Below, piece after piece: positions 16,155 through 59,346 of a DNA stretch of 64,000 nt. The notes below the pieces were generated by a model. The model saw only the letters and a list, made by a program, of their open reading frames with translations, did no database searches and was not told where the DNA came from. The position numbers and the translations under genes are program-made. The stretch comes from a virus. The stretch lies in IMG/VR virus record IMGVR_UViG_3300007554_000005, positions 5,379 to 69,378 of that record; one strand, given 5' to 3'. Each line of letters opens with the position of its first letter. Position 1 is the stretch's first letter.

Positions 16155-16618
16155 TGGCCGATAGCAATATTAAAAAAATCATTATTCGTCAGTCAGAGCT
16201 GCCGCCTCTAAACACAGATGAAGAGAAGTATGTTGTAAGATTTAGGATAGTGTCGGAAGACAAGAACAGGGTTTCTCACTGGTCACCACAGCACCTTCTT
16301 GAGCCAAAGCCACTTGAGATTGCCGAGGACGACAGGATCTCTGTCACTAGTGGCAATGGACTATTGGCTATATCTTGGGAAGAGCTTGAGCCAGGATCAA
16401 TCGCACCTTATGATGTGTGGGTTGCTTGGGGTACGCAGTCTGGAAGCACTGGCTTGTCAGAGTTTAAAGCTACTGTAGCTGGAAACTATGTCACTATACC
16501 AATCCCAGATGGAAAGGTTTCTGCACAAGTCTTTATTCAAAACATGACTGTGCCAAGAAAGCAGCTGCCGTCCTTAGTTGTTGCTCAGACTAGCGTGCTA
16601 GACTTGAATGTGGTATAA
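16154..16618 (+). CDS. putative structural protein (beta-sandwich)
   Basis: TAATG coupling to upstream gene; YVVRFRIVSEDKNRVSHWSP. Confidence 0.5.
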   Translation: MADSNIKKIIIRQSELPPLNTDEEKYVVRFRIVSEDKNRVSHWSPQHLLEPKPLEIAEDDRISVTSGNGLLAISWEELEPGSIAPYDVWVAWGTQSGSTGLSEFKATVAGNYVTIPIPDGKVSAQVFIQNMTVPRKQLPSLVVAQTSVLDLNVV

Positions 16619-40403: not shown

Positions 40404-40475
40404 TCTCCCTTAGCTCAATGGCAGAGCAGAGAGCTGTTAACTCTAAGGTTCGTGGTTCGAGTCCACGAGGGAGAG
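40404..40475 (+). tRNA. tRNA-Asn(GTT), no encoded CCA
   Basis: Cloverleaf TCTCCCT/AGGGAGA, loop CTGTTAA, TTCGAGT T-loop. Confidence 0.92.
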
Positions 40476-40479
40476 CTCA

Positions 40480-40553
40480 GGTCTGTTAGCTCAGTTGGTT
40501 AGAGCACCACCCTGTCACGGTGGGGGTCGTGGGTTCAAGTCCCATACAGATCG
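40480..40553 (+). tRNA. tRNA-Asp(GTC), no encoded CCA
   Basis: GGTCTGT/ACAGATC acceptor, CCACC-CTGTCAC-GGTGG anticodon arm. Confidence 0.93.
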
Positions 40554-40568
40554 CTGGTAGAAATACCT

Positions 40569-40640
40569 GCCCCGATAGCTCAGTGGTAGAGCAACGCACT
40601 TGTAATGCGTAGGTCGTCAGTTCAATCCTGACTTGGGGCT
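40569..40640 (+). tRNA. tRNA-Thr(TGT), no encoded CCA
   Basis: GCCCCGA/TTGGGGC acceptor, ACGCA-CTTGTAA-TGCGT anticodon arm. Confidence 0.93.
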
Positions 40641-40643
40641 CTT

Positions 40644-46193: not shown

Positions 46194-46280
46194 ATGAAAA
46201 AAATTATAGAAACCATAAAATTCTTTATCTGGAAAAGAAAAAATCGAGACAAGCTAAAGCCTAGAAAGTATATATACTAA
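46194..46280 (+). CDS. 28-aa basic peptide coupled to carbamoyltransferase (not in ORF track)
   Basis: MKKIIETIKFFIWKRKNRDKLKPRKYIY; starts 6 nt after TATAAT, stop overlaps next ATG (TAATG). Confidence 0.65.
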   Translation: MKKIIETIKFFIWKRKNRDKLKPRKYIY

Positions 46281-47719
46281 TGATCATCTTGGGGGTAAAC
46301 GAGACTACCCACGACGCTTCAGTAACCCTGATAAAAGATAACATAATCTTATTTGCAGGGCATGCGGAGAGGTACAGTAAAGAAAAGAACGACTGGTTTG
46401 TCAATGACTCTTTAATTGATGATGCACTTAAGTACGGCCAGCCTGACCTCATAGCATACTACGAGCACCCAATGCTAAAGAAAACCAGGATTGCAATCAG
46501 CGGTGGTCTTGGTGGGGGAAAACCAAAGTTTAAAGACCACCCAGCCCTACAGAGTGTTCCAGTAAAATACTTTAGCCACCACTATTCACATGCTGCTGCT
46601 GGATACTATACAAGCAGGTTTAATGACGCAGTAATCGTAGTTCTTGATGCTATAGGAGAGTGGAACACCTCCAGCATCTGGGTAGGAGAAGGTGATAAGA
46701 TCAAGAGTGTCTATAAGAAAAACTATCCCTTTAGCTTTGGACTATTTTACTCAGCTTTTACCCAGCTACTTGGCCTAAAGCCTAACGAAGAGGAATACAT
46801 TATGATGGGCATGGCATCATATGGAAAGCCAAAAAGGTTTTATAAGAAAGTATCTGAATACTTCAGCACAATCAATGGTCAAAAATATAATTTTCACAAG
46901 GGCATTGTAGACTGGGACATTGGGGTGACGGACGTTAACAAGTACGATATAGCAGCAGCTGTTCAAAAGGTATACGAGGATAGACTATATGAGTTTATGG
47001 AGTTTGCCAAGAAAAAGACTGGCAAGCATAACCTAGTTTTCATGGGCGGATGTGCTCTTAATGCTACGGCTAACACTTCTCTCTGGAGTCAGTTCGCAGA
47101 CGTATGGATTATGCCAAACCCAGGAGATGCTGGTAGCTCACTTGGAGCAGCAGCAGCCGCTTATGGCAAACACCTTAACTGGAGAAATCCCTACTTGGGT
47201 TACAATCTAGGAGAGTCTAGGTATCCAGCAGAGTCAGCCCTTAATGCAATTCTAAGCGATGGTGTTGCACCAGTTGTATACGGCAGGGCAGAGTATGGCC
47301 CAAGAGCTTTAGGAAATAGGAGCATCCTAGCTGATCCAAGAGATCCAGAGATAAAGGACAAGGTTAATAGAATTAAGAAGAGGGAGCTATTCCGACCCTT
47401 TGCACCAGTAGTTTTAGAAGAGCACGCATCTGAATGGTTTGACCTACCAGCCACTTCGCCATATATGCAGTATACGGTTAGGTGTAAGCAGCCAAACCTG
47501 ATACCAAGCGTGGTTCATGTTGATGGAACATCTAGGGTACAGACAGTAAATAGGCACCAGCACCCAGGATTACACAGGCTACTAACCTTATTCTATAAAG
47601 AGACTGGGGTCCCAGTCCTACTAAATACTAGCCTTAACATAAAAGGTCAGCCCCTTTTAAATGACGAACATGATATAATTGAATGGGAAAAGACCTACGG
47701 GCAGAAAGTGATAAGATGA
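46280..47719 (+). CDS. carbamoyltransferase (NodU/CmcH/TobZ family)
   Basis: HDAS, HHYSHAA, GGCALN, GPRALGNRSIL, KKRELFRPFAP, LNTSLN. Confidence 0.93.
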   Translation: MIILGVNETTHDASVTLIKDNIILFAGHAERYSKEKNDWFVNDSLIDDALKYGQPDLIAYYEHPMLKKTRIAISGGLGGGKPKFKDHPALQSVPVKYFSHHYSHAAAGYYTSRFNDAVIVVLDAIGEWNTSSIWVGEGDKIKSVYKKNYPFSFGLFYSAFTQLLGLKPNEEEYIMMGMASYGKPKRFYKKVSEYFSTINGQKYNFHKGIVDWDIGVTDVNKYDIAAAVQKVYEDRLYEFMEFAKKKTGKHNLVFMGGCALNATANTSLWSQFADVWIMPNPGDAGSSLGAAAAAYGKHLNWRNPYLGYNLGESRYPAESALNAILSDGVAPVVYGRAEYGPRALGNRSILADPRDPEIKDKVNRIKKRELFRPFAPVVLEEHASEWFDLPATSPYMQYTVRCKQPNLIPSVVHVDGTSRVQTVNRHQHPGLHRLLTLFYKETGVPVLLNTSLNIKGQPLLNDEHDIIEWEKTYGQKVIR

Positions 47720-51539: not shown

Positions 51540-51827
51540 ATGAGTAAGGAAGCGTGGAAGCAGGATGCGTCTTGCCTAAACTACGATGTAAACATATTCT
51601 TTGAAACCTATGAGGAAAATGAGCAGCTCCGTCCTGCAGTAGAGCAGCTTTGTGGTGGATGTCCAGTTGCAAGAGAATGTTTTGCAGTTGGAGTTTCTCA
51701 AAAGGAATACGGTGTCTGGGGTGGTGTCTATCTGGAGCATGGAAAAGTTTCCAGGGAATTTGGTCGGCACAAGACCAAGAAGCAATGGGCAGAAACATGG
51801 AAGAGGCTTACACAAAATGTACACTGA
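51540..51827 (+). CDS. whiB: WhiB-family transcription factor
   Basis: W..ASC...FF...C-x2-CPV..EC, GVWGG. Confidence 0.9.
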   Translation: MSKEAWKQDASCLNYDVNIFFETYEENEQLRPAVEQLCGGCPVARECFAVGVSQKEYGVWGGVYLEHGKVSREFGRHKTKKQWAETWKRLTQNVH

Positions 51828-53262: not shown

Positions 53263-53664
53263 ATGATGGCATCGCTATACATGAAGGATCCATTTGCAAC
53301 ATTCAGTCAGGACATTGACAGAATGTTTAATGCACCACTACAGAAAACCAACTACCCACCCTACAATGTTCGTAAACTAGATAACGAACGATTCGTTATG
53401 GAATTTGCGGTAGCTGGATTTAAAAAGGAAGACATTGACATCTCTGTCGAGAAGTCTATCCTAACCGTAAAGGGCGAACTAGCCGAGTCTGATGATAGTG
53501 ATTACCTGTATAAGGGAATTGCTGGACGAAAGTTTGTTCGCTCGTTCTCACTGCCAGAATACTTTGAGGTGGGGAGAGCAGGTATGTCAGACGGCATTCT
53601 TTACATTGACTTGTACAAGGATGTTCCAGAAGAGAAGAAGCCAAAAACTATCGCTATCGATTAG
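53263..53664 (+). CDS. small heat shock protein (Hsp20/IbpA-like)
   Basis: NYPPYN, AVAGF, YLYKGIAGRKF.RSFSL, DGIL. Confidence 0.93.
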   Translation: MMASLYMKDPFATFSQDIDRMFNAPLQKTNYPPYNVRKLDNERFVMEFAVAGFKKEDIDISVEKSILTVKGELAESDDSDYLYKGIAGRKFVRSFSLPEYFEVGRAGMSDGILYIDLYKDVPEEKKPKTIAID

Positions 53665-53668
53665 TTAG

Positions 53669-53677
53669 TGGTATAAT
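53669..53677 (+). promoter_or_regulatory. extended -10 promoter for ncRNA
   Basis: TGGTATAAT; predicted +1 at 53684 by analogy with leaderless genes. Confidence 0.6.
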
Positions 53678-53683
53678 TAAAAG

Positions 53684-53767
53684 GTCCCCACACAGGGCAA
53701 GGGTTTGCTAACCTTAGGATGATTAGTTACCATTTTCTGGGCCAATCCAGGGTCGCTGTGTGGGGGC
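53684..53767 (+). ncRNA. unassigned structured RNA (closing stem + three hairpins)
   Basis: GTCCCCACACAG/CTGTGTGGGGGC 12-bp closing stem enclosing three hairpins; intergenic; own promoter. Confidence 0.65.
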
Positions 53768-53789
53768 TTTAACTAAGTAAGGTACTGCA

Positions 53790-54788
53790 TTGCTATATAA
53801 TAATTCTAAAGATTCTATAAACAATCCTCTATACGACTTTCTTACTTTCCGTAAAGAAGACTACATAATTCATGCCCATGCAGGAATTAATGGTCTAGAG
53901 CTTATAGTTGATCAAAGCAGTACAGATCCTTTAGATGCTGCATCGGACTTAAGGTCCGAAACAGAAAAGCTTGTTGTTGTAATTATGCCATCTATTGCAC
54001 ATACCATATTAGACGGTATAGCCCTTATGGCAGAGTGGTTTGACGCATACCCAGAAGCAGAGATTATCATTTTAGAAGATCTATATATTCATAACCCCAA
54101 AGACCCTAGGTCGGTTAAGTATGACACAGACGTTCTTGATGTATGCATAGCTATACTCCAGGAACGTGGTGCAAAAATTACAAGGATAACTGGGAAAATA
54201 TTGATAAATAACTTTTATGAAGTTTCATCACCAGGATTTTCCATACCTAAGACCGTACATACCTACAGGGCTCTAGGCTCATTGGCAGATGGTCTTGCTA
54301 CCTCCGAGAAGCCATATAGAAAAGTATACATCTCTAGATCTAAAATTAACGGCAGGGGCTTTTCAGATGAACACTATACAAATAATTCTATGCTTACAGA
54401 CGACTGCCGAGTGTATAATGAAGAGCACCTTGAGCAGCTTTTTGTAGAGATGGGATTCGAGATTGTTTACTTTGAAGAGATGGGAAGCTTTGTTGAGCAG
54501 ATGTCCATAATGAAAGAATCTAAAATTGTTGCTGGTGTAAGTGGTGCTGGATTAACCAGCTCAGTATTCATGAGACCAGGAACCACGGTAGTTGAGATTT
54601 CTACACTAATTCTTGCTCCAGACTCAGCACGCCGACTTCGTCCTAGCTGGCACCACCACCTATCGGATCTAGCCTTTTCAGTCAACCTAAATAAGGTTTC
54701 AGTACCAGTTGTTGAATACAGAGATGGAATTGATGTGGCAAGTAGAATTAGATCTACCCCAATGTTTGACTATCTAAAGAATTATTAA
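53790..54788 (+). CDS. glycosyltransferase family 61-like
   Basis: KVYISR..RVYNEE..GFEIV.FE..SFVEQ..GVSGAGLT..FM.PGT.VVEI. Confidence 0.8.
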   Translation: MLYNNSKDSINNPLYDFLTFRKEDYIIHAHAGINGLELIVDQSSTDPLDAASDLRSETEKLVVVIMPSIAHTILDGIALMAEWFDAYPEAEIIILEDLYIHNPKDPRSVKYDTDVLDVCIAILQERGAKITRITGKILINNFYEVSSPGFSIPKTVHTYRALGSLADGLATSEKPYRKVYISRSKINGRGFSDEHYTNNSMLTDDCRVYNEEHLEQLFVEMGFEIVYFEEMGSFVEQMSIMKESKIVAGVSGAGLTSSVFMRPGTTVVEISTLILAPDSARRLRPSWHHHLSDLAFSVNLNKVSVPVVEYRDGIDVASRIRSTPMFDYLKNY

Positions 54789-55357
54789 GCAAAGTCAATA
54801 TTTAGAATACACCTGAACTCATTATTTACTGGGGATGATGATGCATGGTATACGTTGCCATTAAAAACTACTCCTCTGCCTGCTACAGGGTTAACCCTAA
54901 CATCTTCGCTAAATGATTCTGGCACCTGTTCGGACAGCGTTTCATTAAAAAATACAGTGTCTCCGTCAGAGTTATTTATATAATACAGGAATACTTTATG
55001 TTCAGAGTCAAAGTCAACGTGGGGGGTGTGATACCCAGAAGAAGAAAAAGATCTGGGCAACCAGTTTAGCTTAACTCTGATAATTTTATTAACCTCTATC
55101 CTATGCTTCAGTGTGAAGGCCCTAAAGACCTGCATAAAATATTCATAGGCCTGAGTACCCTCTCTAAGTCCTGCTGCAAACTGATAGCTCTGGGTAACAT
55201 TTTGGTCATCAACTGCATATGGCCCATTTGGGGTATCTGTTCGATATGCAAGGGTCCATGGAATGTCTAAACCATTTATAATTACCCTATCAGATATGTC
55301 CCTGACGGCGGCATCTGGCAAAAAGTTATCGTCTATTAGCACGTTGCTCTCTTTCAT
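54785..55357 (-). CDS. 2OG-Fe(II) oxygenase
   Basis: PHVD, LYYINNSDGDTVFF, YHASSSP, RCILNID; start at MKESN. Confidence 0.8.
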   Translation of the reverse strand: MKESNVLIDDNFLPDAAVRDISDRVIINGLDIPWTLAYRTDTPNGPYAVDDQNVTQSYQFAAGLREGTQAYEYFMQVFRAFTLKHRIEVNKIIRVKLNWLPRSFSSSGYHTPHVDFDSEHKVFLYYINNSDGDTVFFNETLSEQVPESFSEDVRVNPVAGRGVVFNGNVYHASSSPVNNEFRCILNIDFA

Positions 55358-55577
55358 ATGTTCTTTTCTTATGGCAGTTGGAGCAAACAACGTCACACTT
55401 ACTTACTTCCTGCCAAGCAGCTTCCCGACCATATTTTTTCAAAACACGATAGACTATGTCCACCTTCTTTTTCTCTGGGCGGTGATCAAATTCAAGGATA
55501 TAGTGGGGGTATCTGACCTCACAGTCATGGCAACCCTTACTCTCCTTATAAGCTTGAAACTCTGCAAATATTGACAT
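55326..55577 (-). CDS. HNH endonuclease-like protein
   Basis: CHDC..LEFDH..CDVVCSNCH. Confidence 0.8.
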   Translation of the reverse strand: MSIFAEFQAYKESKGCHDCEVRYPHYILEFDHRPEKKKVDIVYRVLKKYGREAAWQEVSKCDVVCSNCHKKRTYEREQRANRR

Positions 55578-55621: not shown

Positions 55622-56473
55622 ATGAATAAACTTAATTTAGATTATGGAAGCTTTATATCCAGAAGCTTTAACTCTGTTACTGTATCTGGAGATGAAGTTA
55701 TAAAGTCTTCCAGAAATTTAGAAAAGATTATTAATGAGCACGCATACTTTTATAGTATATCTGACGATTTAAAGCATTTCATGGTTCAGCCCTATCAGTT
55801 GTCTATCTCAGAAGGTAGGGCAAGCTATAGGATGAAGTTCTGGAGATCTCCAGACGCAGGAGGTCTTTATTCATCTAAAAGCCTGGAGATGTCTGACTTT
55901 GTAAAGATTGTGGACTCTGTAGATTCATTTAAGAAAGCAGCTAAGAGAAATACAAGGACGACAGCTAATTCCTGGAACAGTATGCTTCAGTCAACAACAA
56001 TAAAAGCAAGGTCAAGGGTGACTGACTTTGTTAGCGATCGTGCCATCCCACTTTGTGACAGGCTTGAAGAGCACATTCTTAATATCACACCCTATAGTAT
56101 AGACAGCATAGAGTCACACGGTGACCTTTGCCTGTCAAATATAATTCTTTGTGAAGACGGTATGGTTAGATTTATAGATCCAAGGGGCAGTGACAGCATC
56201 TGGATGGATGAGTATTATGACATGGCTAAGCTGAGCCAGTGCATCTTGGGTGGATATGACTTTATAGTTAATGATGTCCCAGAGAATCATAGCAGAGATA
56301 TACAGGAATATTTCTTGCAATACATAAAGTCTGTTGGACTTTCATACGAGATGCTACGTATATATGAGGCATCTTTGTTTATATCGATGTGCCCACTACA
56401 CTCGGATAGACCAGACCATGTAGAAAAGTTTTTAGATGCTGCTGAAAAGATTTTGATGGAGCTGGGGGCATAG
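55622..56473 (+). CDS. APH/choline-kinase-like phosphotransferase
   Basis: SRSFN, HGDLCLSNI, FIDPRG, YYDMAKL. Confidence 0.75.
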   Translation: MNKLNLDYGSFISRSFNSVTVSGDEVIKSSRNLEKIINEHAYFYSISDDLKHFMVQPYQLSISEGRASYRMKFWRSPDAGGLYSSKSLEMSDFVKIVDSVDSFKKAAKRNTRTTANSWNSMLQSTTIKARSRVTDFVSDRAIPLCDRLEEHILNITPYSIDSIESHGDLCLSNIILCEDGMVRFIDPRGSDSIWMDEYYDMAKLSQCILGGYDFIVNDVPENHSRDIQEYFLQYIKSVGLSYEMLRIYEASLFISMCPLHSDRPDHVEKFLDAAEKILMELGA

Positions 56474-57135
56474 TGAATATTCTACTGCTTATGGCAGGAG
56501 CAGGAAGCAGGTTCGCTGGCAGTAGATACAGCCTACCAAAACCACTGATAGAAATTAATGGCAAGCCAATGTACGAGCATGCCATAGAATCACTTGGGCT
56601 AGATGGAATGGTAATAGCAGTCTCACGCTTCCAGCTGGAAAGAAATAACTACTTCGTAATAAATGTTGACAGAGTTTTAGATGGCCCAGCTGTTAGTGCA
56701 CTATTAGCTAGAGATTATATAAACAATGATGAAGAGCTTGTAATAATGAATTCTGATCAGATGATAGAGTGGAACCCCTCAGACCTGAGCCTAGCTCAAG
56801 CACACGACGGTGGACTTATGCTATTCAAGGCAGGCGGTAATAGATGGTCCTTTGCAAGAGTGATAGATAACAGGGTGGTTGAAGTGGCAGAGAAAGATCC
56901 TATTAGTGAGGATGCTTTGGTGGGAATACACTACTGGAAGCGTGGAAAAGATTTTGTTAAATATGCTGAACAAATGATTTCTAGGAATGACAGGGTAAAC
57001 GGAGAGTTTTATATTGCACCAGTTTACAACTATGCTATTAGTGATGGCTTAAGCATTGTTCCTATCTACGTTAGCAAGATGCACGACCTAGGTACGCCAC
57101 AAGCCCTTGACAGGTATCTAGCAGATAGGATATAA
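56473..57135 (+). CDS. sugar-phosphate nucleotidyltransferase-like protein
   Basis: MAGAGSRF..PKPLIEI, NSDQ, VAEK, RVNGEFYIAPVYN, LGTP. Confidence 0.85.
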   Translation: MNILLLMAGAGSRFAGSRYSLPKPLIEINGKPMYEHAIESLGLDGMVIAVSRFQLERNNYFVINVDRVLDGPAVSALLARDYINNDEELVIMNSDQMIEWNPSDLSLAQAHDGGLMLFKAGGNRWSFARVIDNRVVEVAEKDPISEDALVGIHYWKRGKDFVKYAEQMISRNDRVNGEFYIAPVYNYAISDGLSIVPIYVSKMHDLGTPQALDRYLADRI

Positions 57136-57142
57136 TTTAAGC

Positions 57143-57727
57143 ATGAAGAATATTCTAATTATTTCTGCACACCCAGATGACTTAGAGATGTCATGTGGTG
57201 GATCTGTTGCCAAATGGGTGTCAGAGGGGCACAATGTTGTAAACTTAATTCTTGTTTCCGATGTTAAGCAGATAGACTCCCTTGGCTTTGCTAGGGAGCA
57301 CCTGGGCTACGAAGCAATCCTCTGGCCAGGAGATAGGGGTAGCCTCTCCGTAAACTCTGATATGATTGCAGACATCGAGGCACACTTCGTAGACGTAGAC
57401 TTTGATAGAATAGTTACTCATTGGAGAGAGGATTGGCATCAGGATCATCAGGTTTGTCATAACCTAGGAAGAGTGTTGGCCCGTAAGCAGCCCACTGAGC
57501 TTTGGTATATGTCTTCTCACCCATATCATCTTAAGTACAGGGAATTTAGCCCAGACATATATGTTGACGTAAGCGAGCACGCTCACCTAAAGTATAAGGC
57601 TATTACTGAGTACGACAACTTGCCAGGTTACTGGGAGACTGGCGTTAGGTCACACGATAGCTGGCGTGGAACATTTATTCATGCTAAAAAGGCAGAGGTA
57701 TTCATGGCAGGCAATCTTCTAGGATGA
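57143..57727 (+). CDS. PIG-L/LmbE family deacetylase
   Basis: SAHPDDLE and HQDH motifs. Confidence 0.88.
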   Translation: MKNILIISAHPDDLEMSCGGSVAKWVSEGHNVVNLILVSDVKQIDSLGFAREHLGYEAILWPGDRGSLSVNSDMIADIEAHFVDVDFDRIVTHWREDWHQDHQVCHNLGRVLARKQPTELWYMSSHPYHLKYREFSPDIYVDVSEHAHLKYKAITEYDNLPGYWETGVRSHDSWRGTFIHAKKAEVFMAGNLLG

Positions 57728-59346
57728 AGGTCCTTGGCGTAAACATGTCGCATGACGGTAGCGTATGCGTTATCGAGGATGGTTCAGTAATCTTTTACCA
57801 AGAAGAGGAAAGGATTACACACGAGAAGCATACTACTGGTTTCATAAATAGCTTTGCCAAGGCCATGAGACTCCATGACCCACGGCATATTGTTTTTGTT
57901 GGTGCCTTCCCATATGAGCTAAATGCCAGAGACCTGCTTTCATACCTACTTGTATCAATTGGTAAGACTAAGCATCTTAGTAACAATGAGAAGTACCAGG
58001 CATACTGGCTCAGAGACCATCACTTGGCACATGCAAACGTTGCATTTTATAACTCAGGCTTTGGGGATGCTGGGATCTTGGTGGCAGATGGAGCAGGCCA
58101 AGCATTCTATGACGGAGAGAATCTTTACAGGGAATCCGAAACTATCTACCATGCCTCTAAAGATATTGAGACTCTTCATAAAAACTTGATTACTCAGCAT
58201 TCATCCTGGAGATACGGGGAGCTTGCGATTGAGCTAAGCAGCATGCCACACTTCACCAAATGCTCTGAGAGGCTGCCACTAAATTACCCCTATACAATAT
58301 ACCCCTCCAATTTGAGTTTAGGTAAAATGTTCAGTGCAGCAGGCATTAAAATATTTAATTCTTATCATAATGCAGGAAAAGTTATGGGCCTATCTGCCTA
58401 TGGCGTTGATAATCCATCAGATCCCAGGGCATTTGTTGATGGAGTTGCCAACCCAGAAATTTTGAATAGCGATATCTCGGATGAGAATTTGGCATATAGG
58501 GTACAGAATGATTCTTTGGATGTATCTATTAGCCTTATTAAGAAAACTATAGAGATGTCTGGCAGCAAAAATATTTGCCTTAGCGGTGGGTACTTTCTTA
58601 ACTGTGTCAATAACTACAAGTATCTTAAAGAGTTTCCAGACATTAACTTCTATGTAGAGCCAAACTCCAGTGACTCTGGTACCGCTATCGGGGCAGCCCA
58701 GTGGCTTTATAAGAAGCTAACCAACAAGCCATCTATGCCAATCAATAGGATGTATCTTGGATCACAGGCTAACCACGAGGTCTTCTCAGACACCCAGTCC
58801 ATTGACGTGACGTCAGACCATGTAGCTAAGCTGCTATCTGAGAGAAATGTAGTGGCTATCTACCAGGGAAGGGCTGAGTCAGGGCCTAGGGCCCTAGGTA
58901 ATAGGTCAATTCTTTATGACCCAAGAGATCCAGATGGAAGAGATGTTGTTAATACTATCAAGAAAAGAGAATACTTCAGACCATTTGCTGGCTCAGTTCT
59001 AGAGGAGCGTGCCCCCGACTGGTTTGACATGCAAACACTCTCTAGCAGCCCAGAGATGATGTTCGCCGTCGAGACTTTGCCAGACAAGAGGGATGTCGTC
59101 CCTGCCCTACAGCACAACGATGGAACATCAAGGATTCAGACGGTATCAGCCGATCAAAACAGTAACTACTATGAGTTAATCGAATCATTCTATAATATCA
59201 CTGGAATCCCAATGCTATTGAATACATCATTTAATCTGGCTGGAGACACCCTGGTAGAAAATATGGATGATGCAATCAGAACTTGCAAGGAGTCTGGTAT
59301 TAAGTATCTATACTGCCCAGAGATCTCTAAGCTTATATTGTTATGA
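57724..59346 (+). CDS. second carbamoyltransferase (NodU/CmcH family)
   Basis: HDGS, HHLAHA, GKVMGLSAYG, GPRALGNRSIL, KKREYFRPFA, LNTSFN. Confidence 0.92.
   Translation: MKVLGVNMSHDGSVCVIEDGSVIFYQEEERITHEKHTTGFINSFAKAMRLHDPRHIVFVGAFPYELNARDLLSYLLVSIGKTKHLSNNEKYQAYWLRDHHLAHANVAFYNSGFGDAGILVADGAGQAFYDGENLYRESETIYHASKDIETLHKNLITQHSSWRYGELAIELSSMPHFTKCSERLPLNYPYTIYPSNLSLGKMFSAAGIKIFNSYHNAGKVMGLSAYGVDNPSDPRAFVDGVANPEILNSDISDENLAYRVQNDSLDVSISLIKKTIEMSGSKNICLSGGYFLNCVNNYKYLKEFPDINFYVEPNSSDSGTAIGAAQWLYKKLTNKPSMPINRMYLGSQANHEVFSDTQSIDVTSDHVAKLLSERNVVAIYQGRAESGPRALGNRSILYDPRDPDGRDVVNTIKKREYFRPFAGSVLEERAPDWFDMQTLSSSPEMMFAVETLPDKRDVVPALQHNDGTSRIQTVSADQNSNYYELIESFYNITGIPMLLNTSFNLAGDTLVENMDDAIRTCKESGIKYLYCPEISKLILL

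Follow-up and report, generated by a model that had tools for sequence, protein, structure and literature searches.

A conserved small RNA gene family of uncultured phages with an invariant core complementary to helix 69 of 23S rRNA

Introduction

Antisense RNAs of the CopA/CopT and RNA I/RNA II type are short and structured, have their own promoter and end in a terminator-like stem. They expose a conserved seed in a loop and carry a second complementary segment that is able to extend the duplex with their target, an mRNA or a primer. The C/D and H/ACA guide RNAs of archaea and eukaryotes are likewise small, and they pair with central, modified regions of rRNA during ribosome biogenesis; guide-RNP proteins are, to our knowledge, not known in bacteria or phages. 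Phages also have small stable RNAs of unexplained function, such as rnaC and rnaD (species 1 and 2) of T4, which end its tRNA cluster, and tRNAs and tRNA-like RNAs, including the bacterial YrlA, are built on a four-way junction that is closed by a stem of the 5′ and 3′ ends. The phage small RNAs known to us act on mRNAs or proteins, and we know of none in which a complement of the functional core of host rRNA forms the basis of the molecule. In the part of the literature that a full-text search gave access to, there was no paper on a phage RNA complementary to 23S rRNA or to helix 69.

Helix 69 of 23S rRNA is a central intersubunit bridge and is exposed in the free 50S subunit. In its mature form, it is buried in the 70S ribosome, and it carries pseudouridines as well as one methylated pseudouridine that is unable to form a Watson-Crick pair.

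Here, we describe a small RNA gene in a 64,000-nt stretch of DNA (the window) from a 69-kb IMG/VR virus record with an estimated completeness of 61%. A sequence-only reading had drawn attention to a cloverleaf-like RNA with its own promoter downstream of an hsp20 gene, and had considered it as a tRNA-mimic decoy against anticodon nucleases, a protein sponge or a packaging RNA. The conservation reported below indicates that the structured small RNA is a real, conserved and uncatalogued phage gene. Its invariant letters are the complement of helix 69, and we infer that it would act as an antisense RNA on the 23S rRNA of the host.

Results

Layout and fold of the element

The promoter box, G53684 as first nucleotide, the 12-bp stem with its GGC/GTC extension past a bulge, the three hairpins and the T run all lie where the sequence-only reading had placed them. 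The features discussed in the text are, in window coordinates:

51555..51728, + strand: WhiB-family gene, a marker of an actinobacterial host (context; PF02467, 49.4 bits, above the cut-off)
53263..53664, + strand: hsp20 gene, the upstream neighbour (context; Pfam PF00011, E = 2e-20; phrog_432)
53669..53677, + strand: extended -10-type promoter box TGGTATAAT, 6 nt 5′ of the first G of the RNA
53684..53770, + strand: small RNA gene, about 84-87 nt long, a class-2 member of its family; supported by its fold and by hsp20-anchored homologues
53684..53698, + strand: 5′ strand of the closing stem P1 (GTCCCCACACAG at 53684-53695 plus GGC at 53696-53698), pairing with 53752-53767
53700..53715, + strand: hairpin 1, AGGGTT-TGCT-AACCTT, whose base and 3′ strand continue into the antisense core
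53711..53721, + strand: putative left antisense arm ACCTTAGGATG, opposite the 3′ strand of helix 69 and the junction (23S nt 2131-2141 of L149)
53716..53736, + strand: hairpin 2, AGGATG-ATTAGTTAC-CATTTT, from sequence and fold
53722..53730, + strand: 9-nt loop ATTAGTTAC of hairpin 2, which would present the seed of the right arm
53724..53732, + strand: putative right antisense arm TAGTTACCA, opposite the 5′ strand and loop of helix 69 (23S nt 2118-2126 of L149)
53737..53750, + strand: hairpin 3, CTGGG-CCAA-TCCAG, from sequence and fold
53752..53767, + strand: 3′ strand of P1 (GTC at 53752-53754, a bulged G, CTGTGTGGGGGC at 53756-53767), from sequence, fold and covariation
53768..53770, + strand: short T run TTT 3′ of P1; as a terminator tail it is weak, and relatives have longer ones

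The RNA begins 20 nt past the hsp20 stop, its downstream neighbour is a family-61 glycosyltransferase gene, and there is one copy in the 69-kb record. On the + strand, 53684-53772 folds with -38.5 kcal/mol (z = -3.54; 0/200 shuffles equal this), and the centroid structure is the four-way junction that had been drawn; the minus strand folds more weakly (-29.7, z = -2.57). This fold, and the -10-type box situated between the hsp20 stop and the stem, bear out the proposal of a stand-alone structured ncRNA with its own promoter. The genes surrounding the RNA make up a sugar- or modification-type cluster (46280-47719, 53790-54788, 54785-55396 on the minus strand, 56473-57135 and 57724-59346), which contains two carbamoyltransferases, the GT61 glycosyltransferase, a minus-strand 2OG-Fe(II) oxygenase-like gene and a nucleotidyltransferase.

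With respect to known RNA families, ARAGORN finds tRNAs in the window only at 40404-40641 (three) and none at the element, and Rfam release 15 (4227 models) at the gathering score likewise returns only three tRNAs from the window. At E<=10, the region 53400-54000 yields two irrelevant weak matches, both outside the element (53826-53875 and 53580-53613), and the loci of 15 relatives yield only tRNAs. The element departs from tRNA (RF00005) in its closing stem of 12+3 bp and its central loop of 9 nt, and the tRNA model does not match it. The earlier statements that this is no canonical tRNA and that it lies outside the known Rfam families thus both hold, and an identity as tRNA, tmRNA or Y-RNA-like RNA was rejected on the negative ARAGORN and Rfam results. 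In blastn searches, neither the window region nor three further members of the family had a useful match among 50,697 phage records, and the closest Hsp20 among cultured phages is at most 45% identical.

An ATG at 53720 within the core opens a 17-codon frame that runs to a TAA (53720-53773). Relatives carry insertions of 1-3 nt directly after this ATG and differ in their downstream frames, and because these indels break the frame, the coding reading was dropped.

Conservation in hsp20-anchored relatives

Homologues downstream of hsp20, which the sequence-only reading had suggested to look for, do exist. Retrieval anchored on Hsp20 gave 25 viral loci, and nhmmer found the element in 16 of them; the nine loci lacking a match are the most distant Hsp20 relatives, several of them with short flanks. 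All 16 copies have a TATAAT about 7 nt ahead of GTCCCC, a variable first hairpin, an invariant stretch CTTAGGATG..TAGTTACC and a closing stem that ends in GGGGATTTT, optionally followed by a further T. Among the distinct hsp20-anchored relatives, the left block CTTAGGATG and the right block TAGTTACC are each invariant in 14/14.

When the structure as first drawn was counted on 25 class-2 sequences, 87.7% of the cells were paired, as opposed to 41-55% in slid controls. The closing stem P1 is the best supported part: its 15 pairs are 98% paired in the 25 sequences, and in 5/15 both partners have changed. Hairpin 1 retains its base (AAGG/CCTT) in 25/25 with a variable top, and hairpin 3 retains no more than a 3-bp core (TGG/CCA) in the relatives. 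Hairpin 2 is invariant across the 25 sequences, and covariation therefore neither supports nor refutes it; within the core, RNAalifold favours an alternative small hairpin over the structure that had been drawn there. The covariation check called for earlier thus turned out in favour of the closing stem and was uninformative for hairpin 2.

The invariant core is complementary to helix 69

The core, as the pattern TTAGGATG-N1-6-TAGTTACC, was sought in one genome per prokaryote species, which returned at least 120 stretches. Among the 120 genome stretches listed, 119 share one 20-mer, TTAGGATGGTTATAGTTACC, letter for letter, as well as the long conserved sequence around it. All 119 are from Actinomycetota, and cultivable actinobacteria (Corynebacterium glutamicum, Streptomyces) have this 20-mer in their 23S rRNA; the remaining stretch is an unrelated site in a Bacteroidetes MAG. 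In two of the loci, L149 and L159, Rfam annotates bacterial LSU rRNA across the site on the strand opposite to the motif, so that the + strand core of the phage is the reverse complement of 23S rRNA. The matching site lies at about nt 2118-2141 of the 3109-nt 23S rRNA of L149, with the helix-69 core located at 2119, and we take it to be helix 69 of domain IV with the adjoining junction (about 1906-1930 in E. coli numbering).

Over its 11 nt, the left arm ACCTTAGGATG is identical to reverse-complemented L149 23S rRNA. In the predicted pairing, 53711-53721 face 23S nt 2131-2141 and 53724-53732 face nt 2118-2126, and between the two duplexes there are 4 target bases opposite 2 bases of the RNA. 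The inner 61 nt of the element align with reverse-complemented 23S rRNA at 32 identities over 39 columns, and their score of 36 is reached by 0/500 shuffles (20.3 +/- 2.2); the 23S sense strand and both strands of 16S rRNA score 16-19. Hairpin 1 aligns with reverse-complemented 23S rRNA right beside helix 69. The 14 distinct relatives had been retrieved via Hsp20, and thus independently of the motif, and their two longest invariant blocks (9 + 8 nt) are identical to reverse-complemented 23S rRNA in 17/17 positions. These blocks, ACCUUAGGAUG and UAGUUACCA, are complementary to both strands and the loop of actinobacterial helix 69. By sequence comparison, the RNA is thus built on an invariant bipartite core complementary to helix 69 of the host type. 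The suggestion that the 9-nt central loop is the key element finds support here, since the TAGTTAC of the right arm, which lies inside the loop of hairpin 2, is invariant and is predicted to be largely unpaired (UAGUUAC: 73-80% in the 25 class-2 RNAs, 54-79% in class 1). The left arm is predicted to be mostly paired inside the RNA.

Beyond the motif, exact-word sharing with the whole 23S rRNA is at chance level, and so is 11-mer sharing of the window with 23S, 16S and 5S rRNA at other sites. Outside the arms, the window element scores 12 on the helix 70-71 side, which is not above controls, and on the helix 68 side it exceeds the 95th percentile only. Among relatives, the helix 70-71 side exceeds the control 95th percentile in 24/102 actinobacterial-type elements for the antisense and 4/102 for the sense orientation, and in 8/17 versus 0/17 of the elements of another type (see below), which points to a modest enrichment of complementarity on this side.

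Among 286 tiled 32-nt fragments of 23S and 16S rRNA, the top two predicted gains from dimer formation both overlap helix 69. At -6.9 and -2.9 kcal/mol, the predicted net gain is small, and the predicted dimer opens the closing stem of the RNA. RNAduplex runs of the whole RNA against whole rRNAs gave long, uninformative duplexes.

Two other likenesses were considered and rejected. A mimic of the 16S '790' hairpin loop was discarded because the exact match lies on the 23S antisense strand, and a CsrA-type GGA site would leave the second arm unexplained. Elsewhere in the window, a 13-mer at 687-699 and a 14-mer at 16387-16400, both on the + strand and inside ORFs, complement the first 26 nt of 16S rRNA with overlapping targets; chance alone would give about 1.4 and 0.4 matches of this kind, and the two are probably a coincidence.

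A family of phage elements in several architectures

Viral contigs were scanned with the pattern TTAGGATG-N1-6-TAGTTACC, which at least 117 stretches match. A control pattern of the same letters with the arms swapped gave 35 heterogeneous stretches, many in open frames, and none of the 35 has the promoter-stem layout. Among the matches listed for the core pattern, 61 of the 98 distinct sequences show the layout promoter-stem-core-stem (36 in class 1, 25 in class 2), and about 15 look like chance hits within genes. In the window copy, the core is clamped by a long covarying closing stem (P1) and preceded by its own -10 box (TATAAT), in place of which other members have a link to tRNA genes. The motif defines a large uncatalogued family of phage small RNAs, of which the window RNA is a member.

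The scaffolds differ across the family. Class-1 relatives have no hairpin 1, and other relatives are permuted. Forms of 112-123 nt begin 2 nt past a low-scoring tRNA (L095, L099, L108, L086), and circularly permuted forms lie 17-65 nt upstream of the first tRNA of a co-oriented array (L030, L036, L040, L067, L129, L136), so that some copies are fused to tRNA arrays. Yet other forms bear a GC-rich terminator of their own. Relatives of the L057 kind keep several reverse-complemented 23S modules in rDNA order. Because class-1 relatives lack hairpin 1 and others are permuted, the cloverleaf is not the conserved feature. The likeness noted by the sequence-only reading is real as far as the four-way junction of this fold goes, but it is superficial, since relatives keep the core while dropping or permuting whole arms, and the cloverleaf look is incidental.

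The RNA lies directly 3′ of hsp20 in 14/25 class-2 and 7/36 class-1 relatives, the class-2 count being biased upward because part of this class was retrieved via hsp20, and there is no hsp20 at all in 22/36 class-1 and 5/25 class-2 loci. The link to hsp20 is frequent, not obligatory.

Arms and host lineage

One viral locus, L283, contains a genuine rRNA fragment with a different version of helix 69, whose reverse complement reads TTAGGACCGTTATAGTTACGG. Scanning viral contigs for arms of this second type gave 27 stretches, i.e., L283 itself, a chance-like match (L266) and 25 small intergenic elements. Type X comprises 15 of these 25; here, a terminator hairpin lies 3′ of the core, and its loop, (G)GAATTCGCTAC or AGTATCGCTAC, is similar to the neighbouring stretch of reverse-complemented 23S rRNA. 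The remaining 10 are of type Y and have the core in a loop that ACACC/GGTGT closes. The terminator loop of type X (L265-L291) reads GGAATTCGCTAC or similar and faces 23S rRNA just 3′ of helix 69; it looks like a second, putative antisense module in non-actinobacterial phages. Nine loci with second-type elements gave 0 matches to Rfam at E<=1. Two of the contigs with type-X elements are 430-kb genomes rated complete.

As a host marker, we used WhiB (PF02467), which was sought in whole contigs and which, among 14 control genomes, occurs only in Corynebacterium. WhiB is present in 19/20 contigs with the actinobacterial-type core and in 0/13 contigs with the second-type core, the hosts of the latter being known solely as lacking the actinobacterial marker. 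The phage of the window has a WhiB gene (51555-51728, record 56933-57106), and this marker identifies it as a phage of Actinomycetota. The comparison thus indicates that two phage groups carry the complements of two versions of helix 69, the first of which is tied to actinobacterial hosts. Since the arms can also pair with each other, their joint change from one host type to the other does not on its own prove pairing between two molecules. The runs holding the phage of the window are labelled as marine and riverine metagenomes.

Strand, promoter and expression

The 22 nt upstream of the stem contain a perfect TATAAT in 47/60 class-1 and class-2 relatives on the + strand and in 0/60 on the opposite strand; at least five of the six TATAAT positions are present in 59/60 and 22/60, respectively. 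At the 3′ edge, at least 6 of the 12 surrounding bases are T in 27/60. A simple consensus scan of the window does not list the promoter TGGTATAAT, because it has no -35 hexamer; it lists no + strand terminator at the element and one terminator-like minus-strand site (53702-53686). All large ORFs in the surroundings of the element read on the + strand, and tRNA-linked relatives are co-oriented with the adjacent tRNA genes. In metatranscriptomes, run X21 gave contigs over hsp20 only, and run X24 gave a single unstranded contig of 158 nt that covers 53671-53765 in a related copy. The flanks of this copy differ from those in the window, and the contig is possibly carried-over DNA. We thus rely on sequence signals in taking the RNA to be transcribed, and to be transcribed from the + strand.

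In the flanks of relatives, the next genes start 6-7 nt past a TATAAT (e.g., gtggtataataacagcATG; L014 376-406, L021 3488-3517). This apparent layout for leaderless mRNAs fits an actinobacterial host.

Discussion

We consider it reasonably likely, at a probability of about 0.6, that the element encodes an antisense RNA acting in trans, by pairing with helix 69 of the nascent or free 50S subunit. More generally, the phage probably pairs an RNA of its own directly with the ribosomal RNA of its host. In the mechanism that we propose, an RNA of about 85 nt would be made from the -10-type promoter ahead of it and would end in the long closing stem and a U tail. Its exposed 9-nt loop would start pairing with the loop and 5′ strand of helix 69, and pairing would next spread to the 3′ strand. 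An exposed loop combined with a paired left arm, as the folding predictions have it, would look like a loop-nucleated antisense interaction. The target would be 23S rRNA that is still nascent or in a free 50S subunit rather than rRNA within the 70S ribosome; a nascent 23S rRNA or a free immature 50S subunit is favoured because helix 69 bridges the subunits, is exposed in free 50S and carries modified uridines. Pairing at this site might block or delay late maturation of the 50S subunit or subunit joining. A counterpoint to any targeting of ribosomes is that phages need working ribosomes themselves. The small predicted gain from dimer formation, the opening of the closing stem in the predicted dimer, the mostly paired left arm, the limited similarity to 23S rRNA outside the arms, and the burial and modified uridines of mature helix 69 also weigh against the pairing. 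Possible gains for the phage lie in sparing nucleotides, in timing host shut-off or in countering a host factor.

The complementarity could also have a history that has little to do with rRNA pairing. The element may be a relic of captured, inverted host rDNA, in which the hairpin was kept for binding a phage or host protein. The L057-like relatives with their 23S modules in rDNA order do suggest descent from rDNA, hairpin 2 shows no covariation, and the ability of the arms to pair mutually makes a protein-bound hairpin conceivable. However, only the segments complementary to helix 69 are invariant, whereas the scaffold has been rebuilt, shortened and circularly permuted. The right arm is moreover predicted to be held in an exposed loop, and the arms match the helix 69 of the host lineage in two phage groups, which would require repeated capture. 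We therefore regard a protein-binding relic as unlikely. Reading the locus from the other strand would give a sense mimic of helix 69, i.e., a decoy for factors or toxins that recognise this helix. The minus strand does fold (z = -2.57), it has the terminator-like site at 53702-53686, and the A-rich stretch ahead of the stem would be a U run in its transcript, but the signals of the relatives are oriented otherwise: the perfect upstream TATAAT is found in 47/60 against 0/60, the flanking genes are all on the + strand, relatives read in the same direction as tRNA genes at a distance of 2-65 nt, and 14/15 type-X elements end with a hairpin and T run on the strand that reads antisense. Such a mimic is thus very unlikely.

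With hsp20 ending 20 nt upstream, one may ask whether the structure acts in cis, either as the terminator or 3′ UTR of hsp20 or as a leader or riboswitch for the glycosyltransferase gene that follows it. The position after hsp20 in 14/25 class-2 and 7/36 class-1 relatives agrees with this, and the closing stem with its T run could stop hsp20 read-through. Against it stand the separate -10 box between the hsp20 stop and the stem, the loci that have no hsp20 (22/36 and 5/25), the downstream genes of relatives, which differ and bear TATAAT promoters of their own, and the location of other classes in tRNA arrays; a simple terminator would also have no need of an invariant 17-nt core. A role confined to the flanking genes hence seems quite improbable. 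Least credible of all is the decoy against anticodon nucleases, or any other tRNA mimic, although the four-way junction, a length about that of a tRNA and the tRNA genes next to relatives agree with the idea. ARAGORN and the Rfam tRNA model are negative, the closing stem has 12-15 bp rather than 7, signatures of a T-loop or D-loop are missing, and with hairpin 1 absent in class 1 and other relatives permuted, the cloverleaf is not what is kept; the conserved letters are the complement of 23S helix 69. The proposed roles as protein sponge or packaging RNA are unsupported. The preferred reading is thus that of an antisense RNA to helix 69.

If the pairing is real, it would represent a new route of host takeover, in which a viral RNA controls ribosome biogenesis or subunit joining, and it would provide a natural antisense ligand of helix 69, a region that is a drug target. 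It would further suggest a candidate function for a widespread, uncatalogued RNA family of uncultured aquatic phages that is found partly within tRNA arrays. The core sequence could serve as a marker for host prediction, because the arms report the helix-69 type of the host. As a tentative generalisation, which we hold to be rather less than an even bet, phages of several bacterial phyla may encode an RNA that docks on helix 69 of nascent or free 50S subunits and so throttles or reprograms how host ribosomes are produced or how their subunits join. The arms of such an RNA would co-evolve with host rRNA, and small stable RNAs in tRNA clusters might perhaps follow the same logic.

Comparison with known systems

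The window RNA resembles tRNAs and tRNA-like RNAs such as YrlA in size and in the four-way junction closed by a stem of its ends. Unlike them, it has no Rfam match even at E<=10, and the junction is not shared throughout its family.

With T4 rnaC and rnaD, it has in common that these are phage small RNAs linked to tRNA genes, as are the class 3/4 relatives, but the window RNA itself lies 13 kb from the tRNAs of its phage. We compared the window RNA with the two T4 RNAs by reading the sequences, and rejected them as relatives since neither shows significant similarity to reverse-complemented 23S rRNA (both score 19, below the mean of 21 for shuffles, of which 284/300 and 275/300 do as well); local alignments to either strand of 23S rRNA fall below the shuffle mean. 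A post hoc observation is that rnaD (L293 1554-1672, minus strand) contains two 8-mers, TCGCTACC and AAGGAATT, that match reverse-complemented 23S rRNA. The first lies mostly within the 7-nt loop of the predicted first hairpin of rnaD, and the two are directly adjacent in the reverse-complemented 23S rRNA of L283, beside helix 69.

As with the C/D and H/ACA guide RNAs, a few target bases would be left unpaired between the two predicted duplexes. Unlike in these guides, the arms of the window RNA are adjacent on one strand, 2 nt apart, and a reading by eye found no H/ACA or C/D box motifs at the required places.

There is also a parallel in layout with antisense RNAs of the CopA/CopT and RNA I/RNA II type, whose small size, promoter, terminator-like stem, loop-exposed conserved seed and second complementary segment all have counterparts in the window RNA. 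It differs from them in that no chaperone, target degradation or logic of translational control is evident, and in that its complement, as read from the alignments, is the most conserved part of 23S domain IV rather than an mRNA or a primer.
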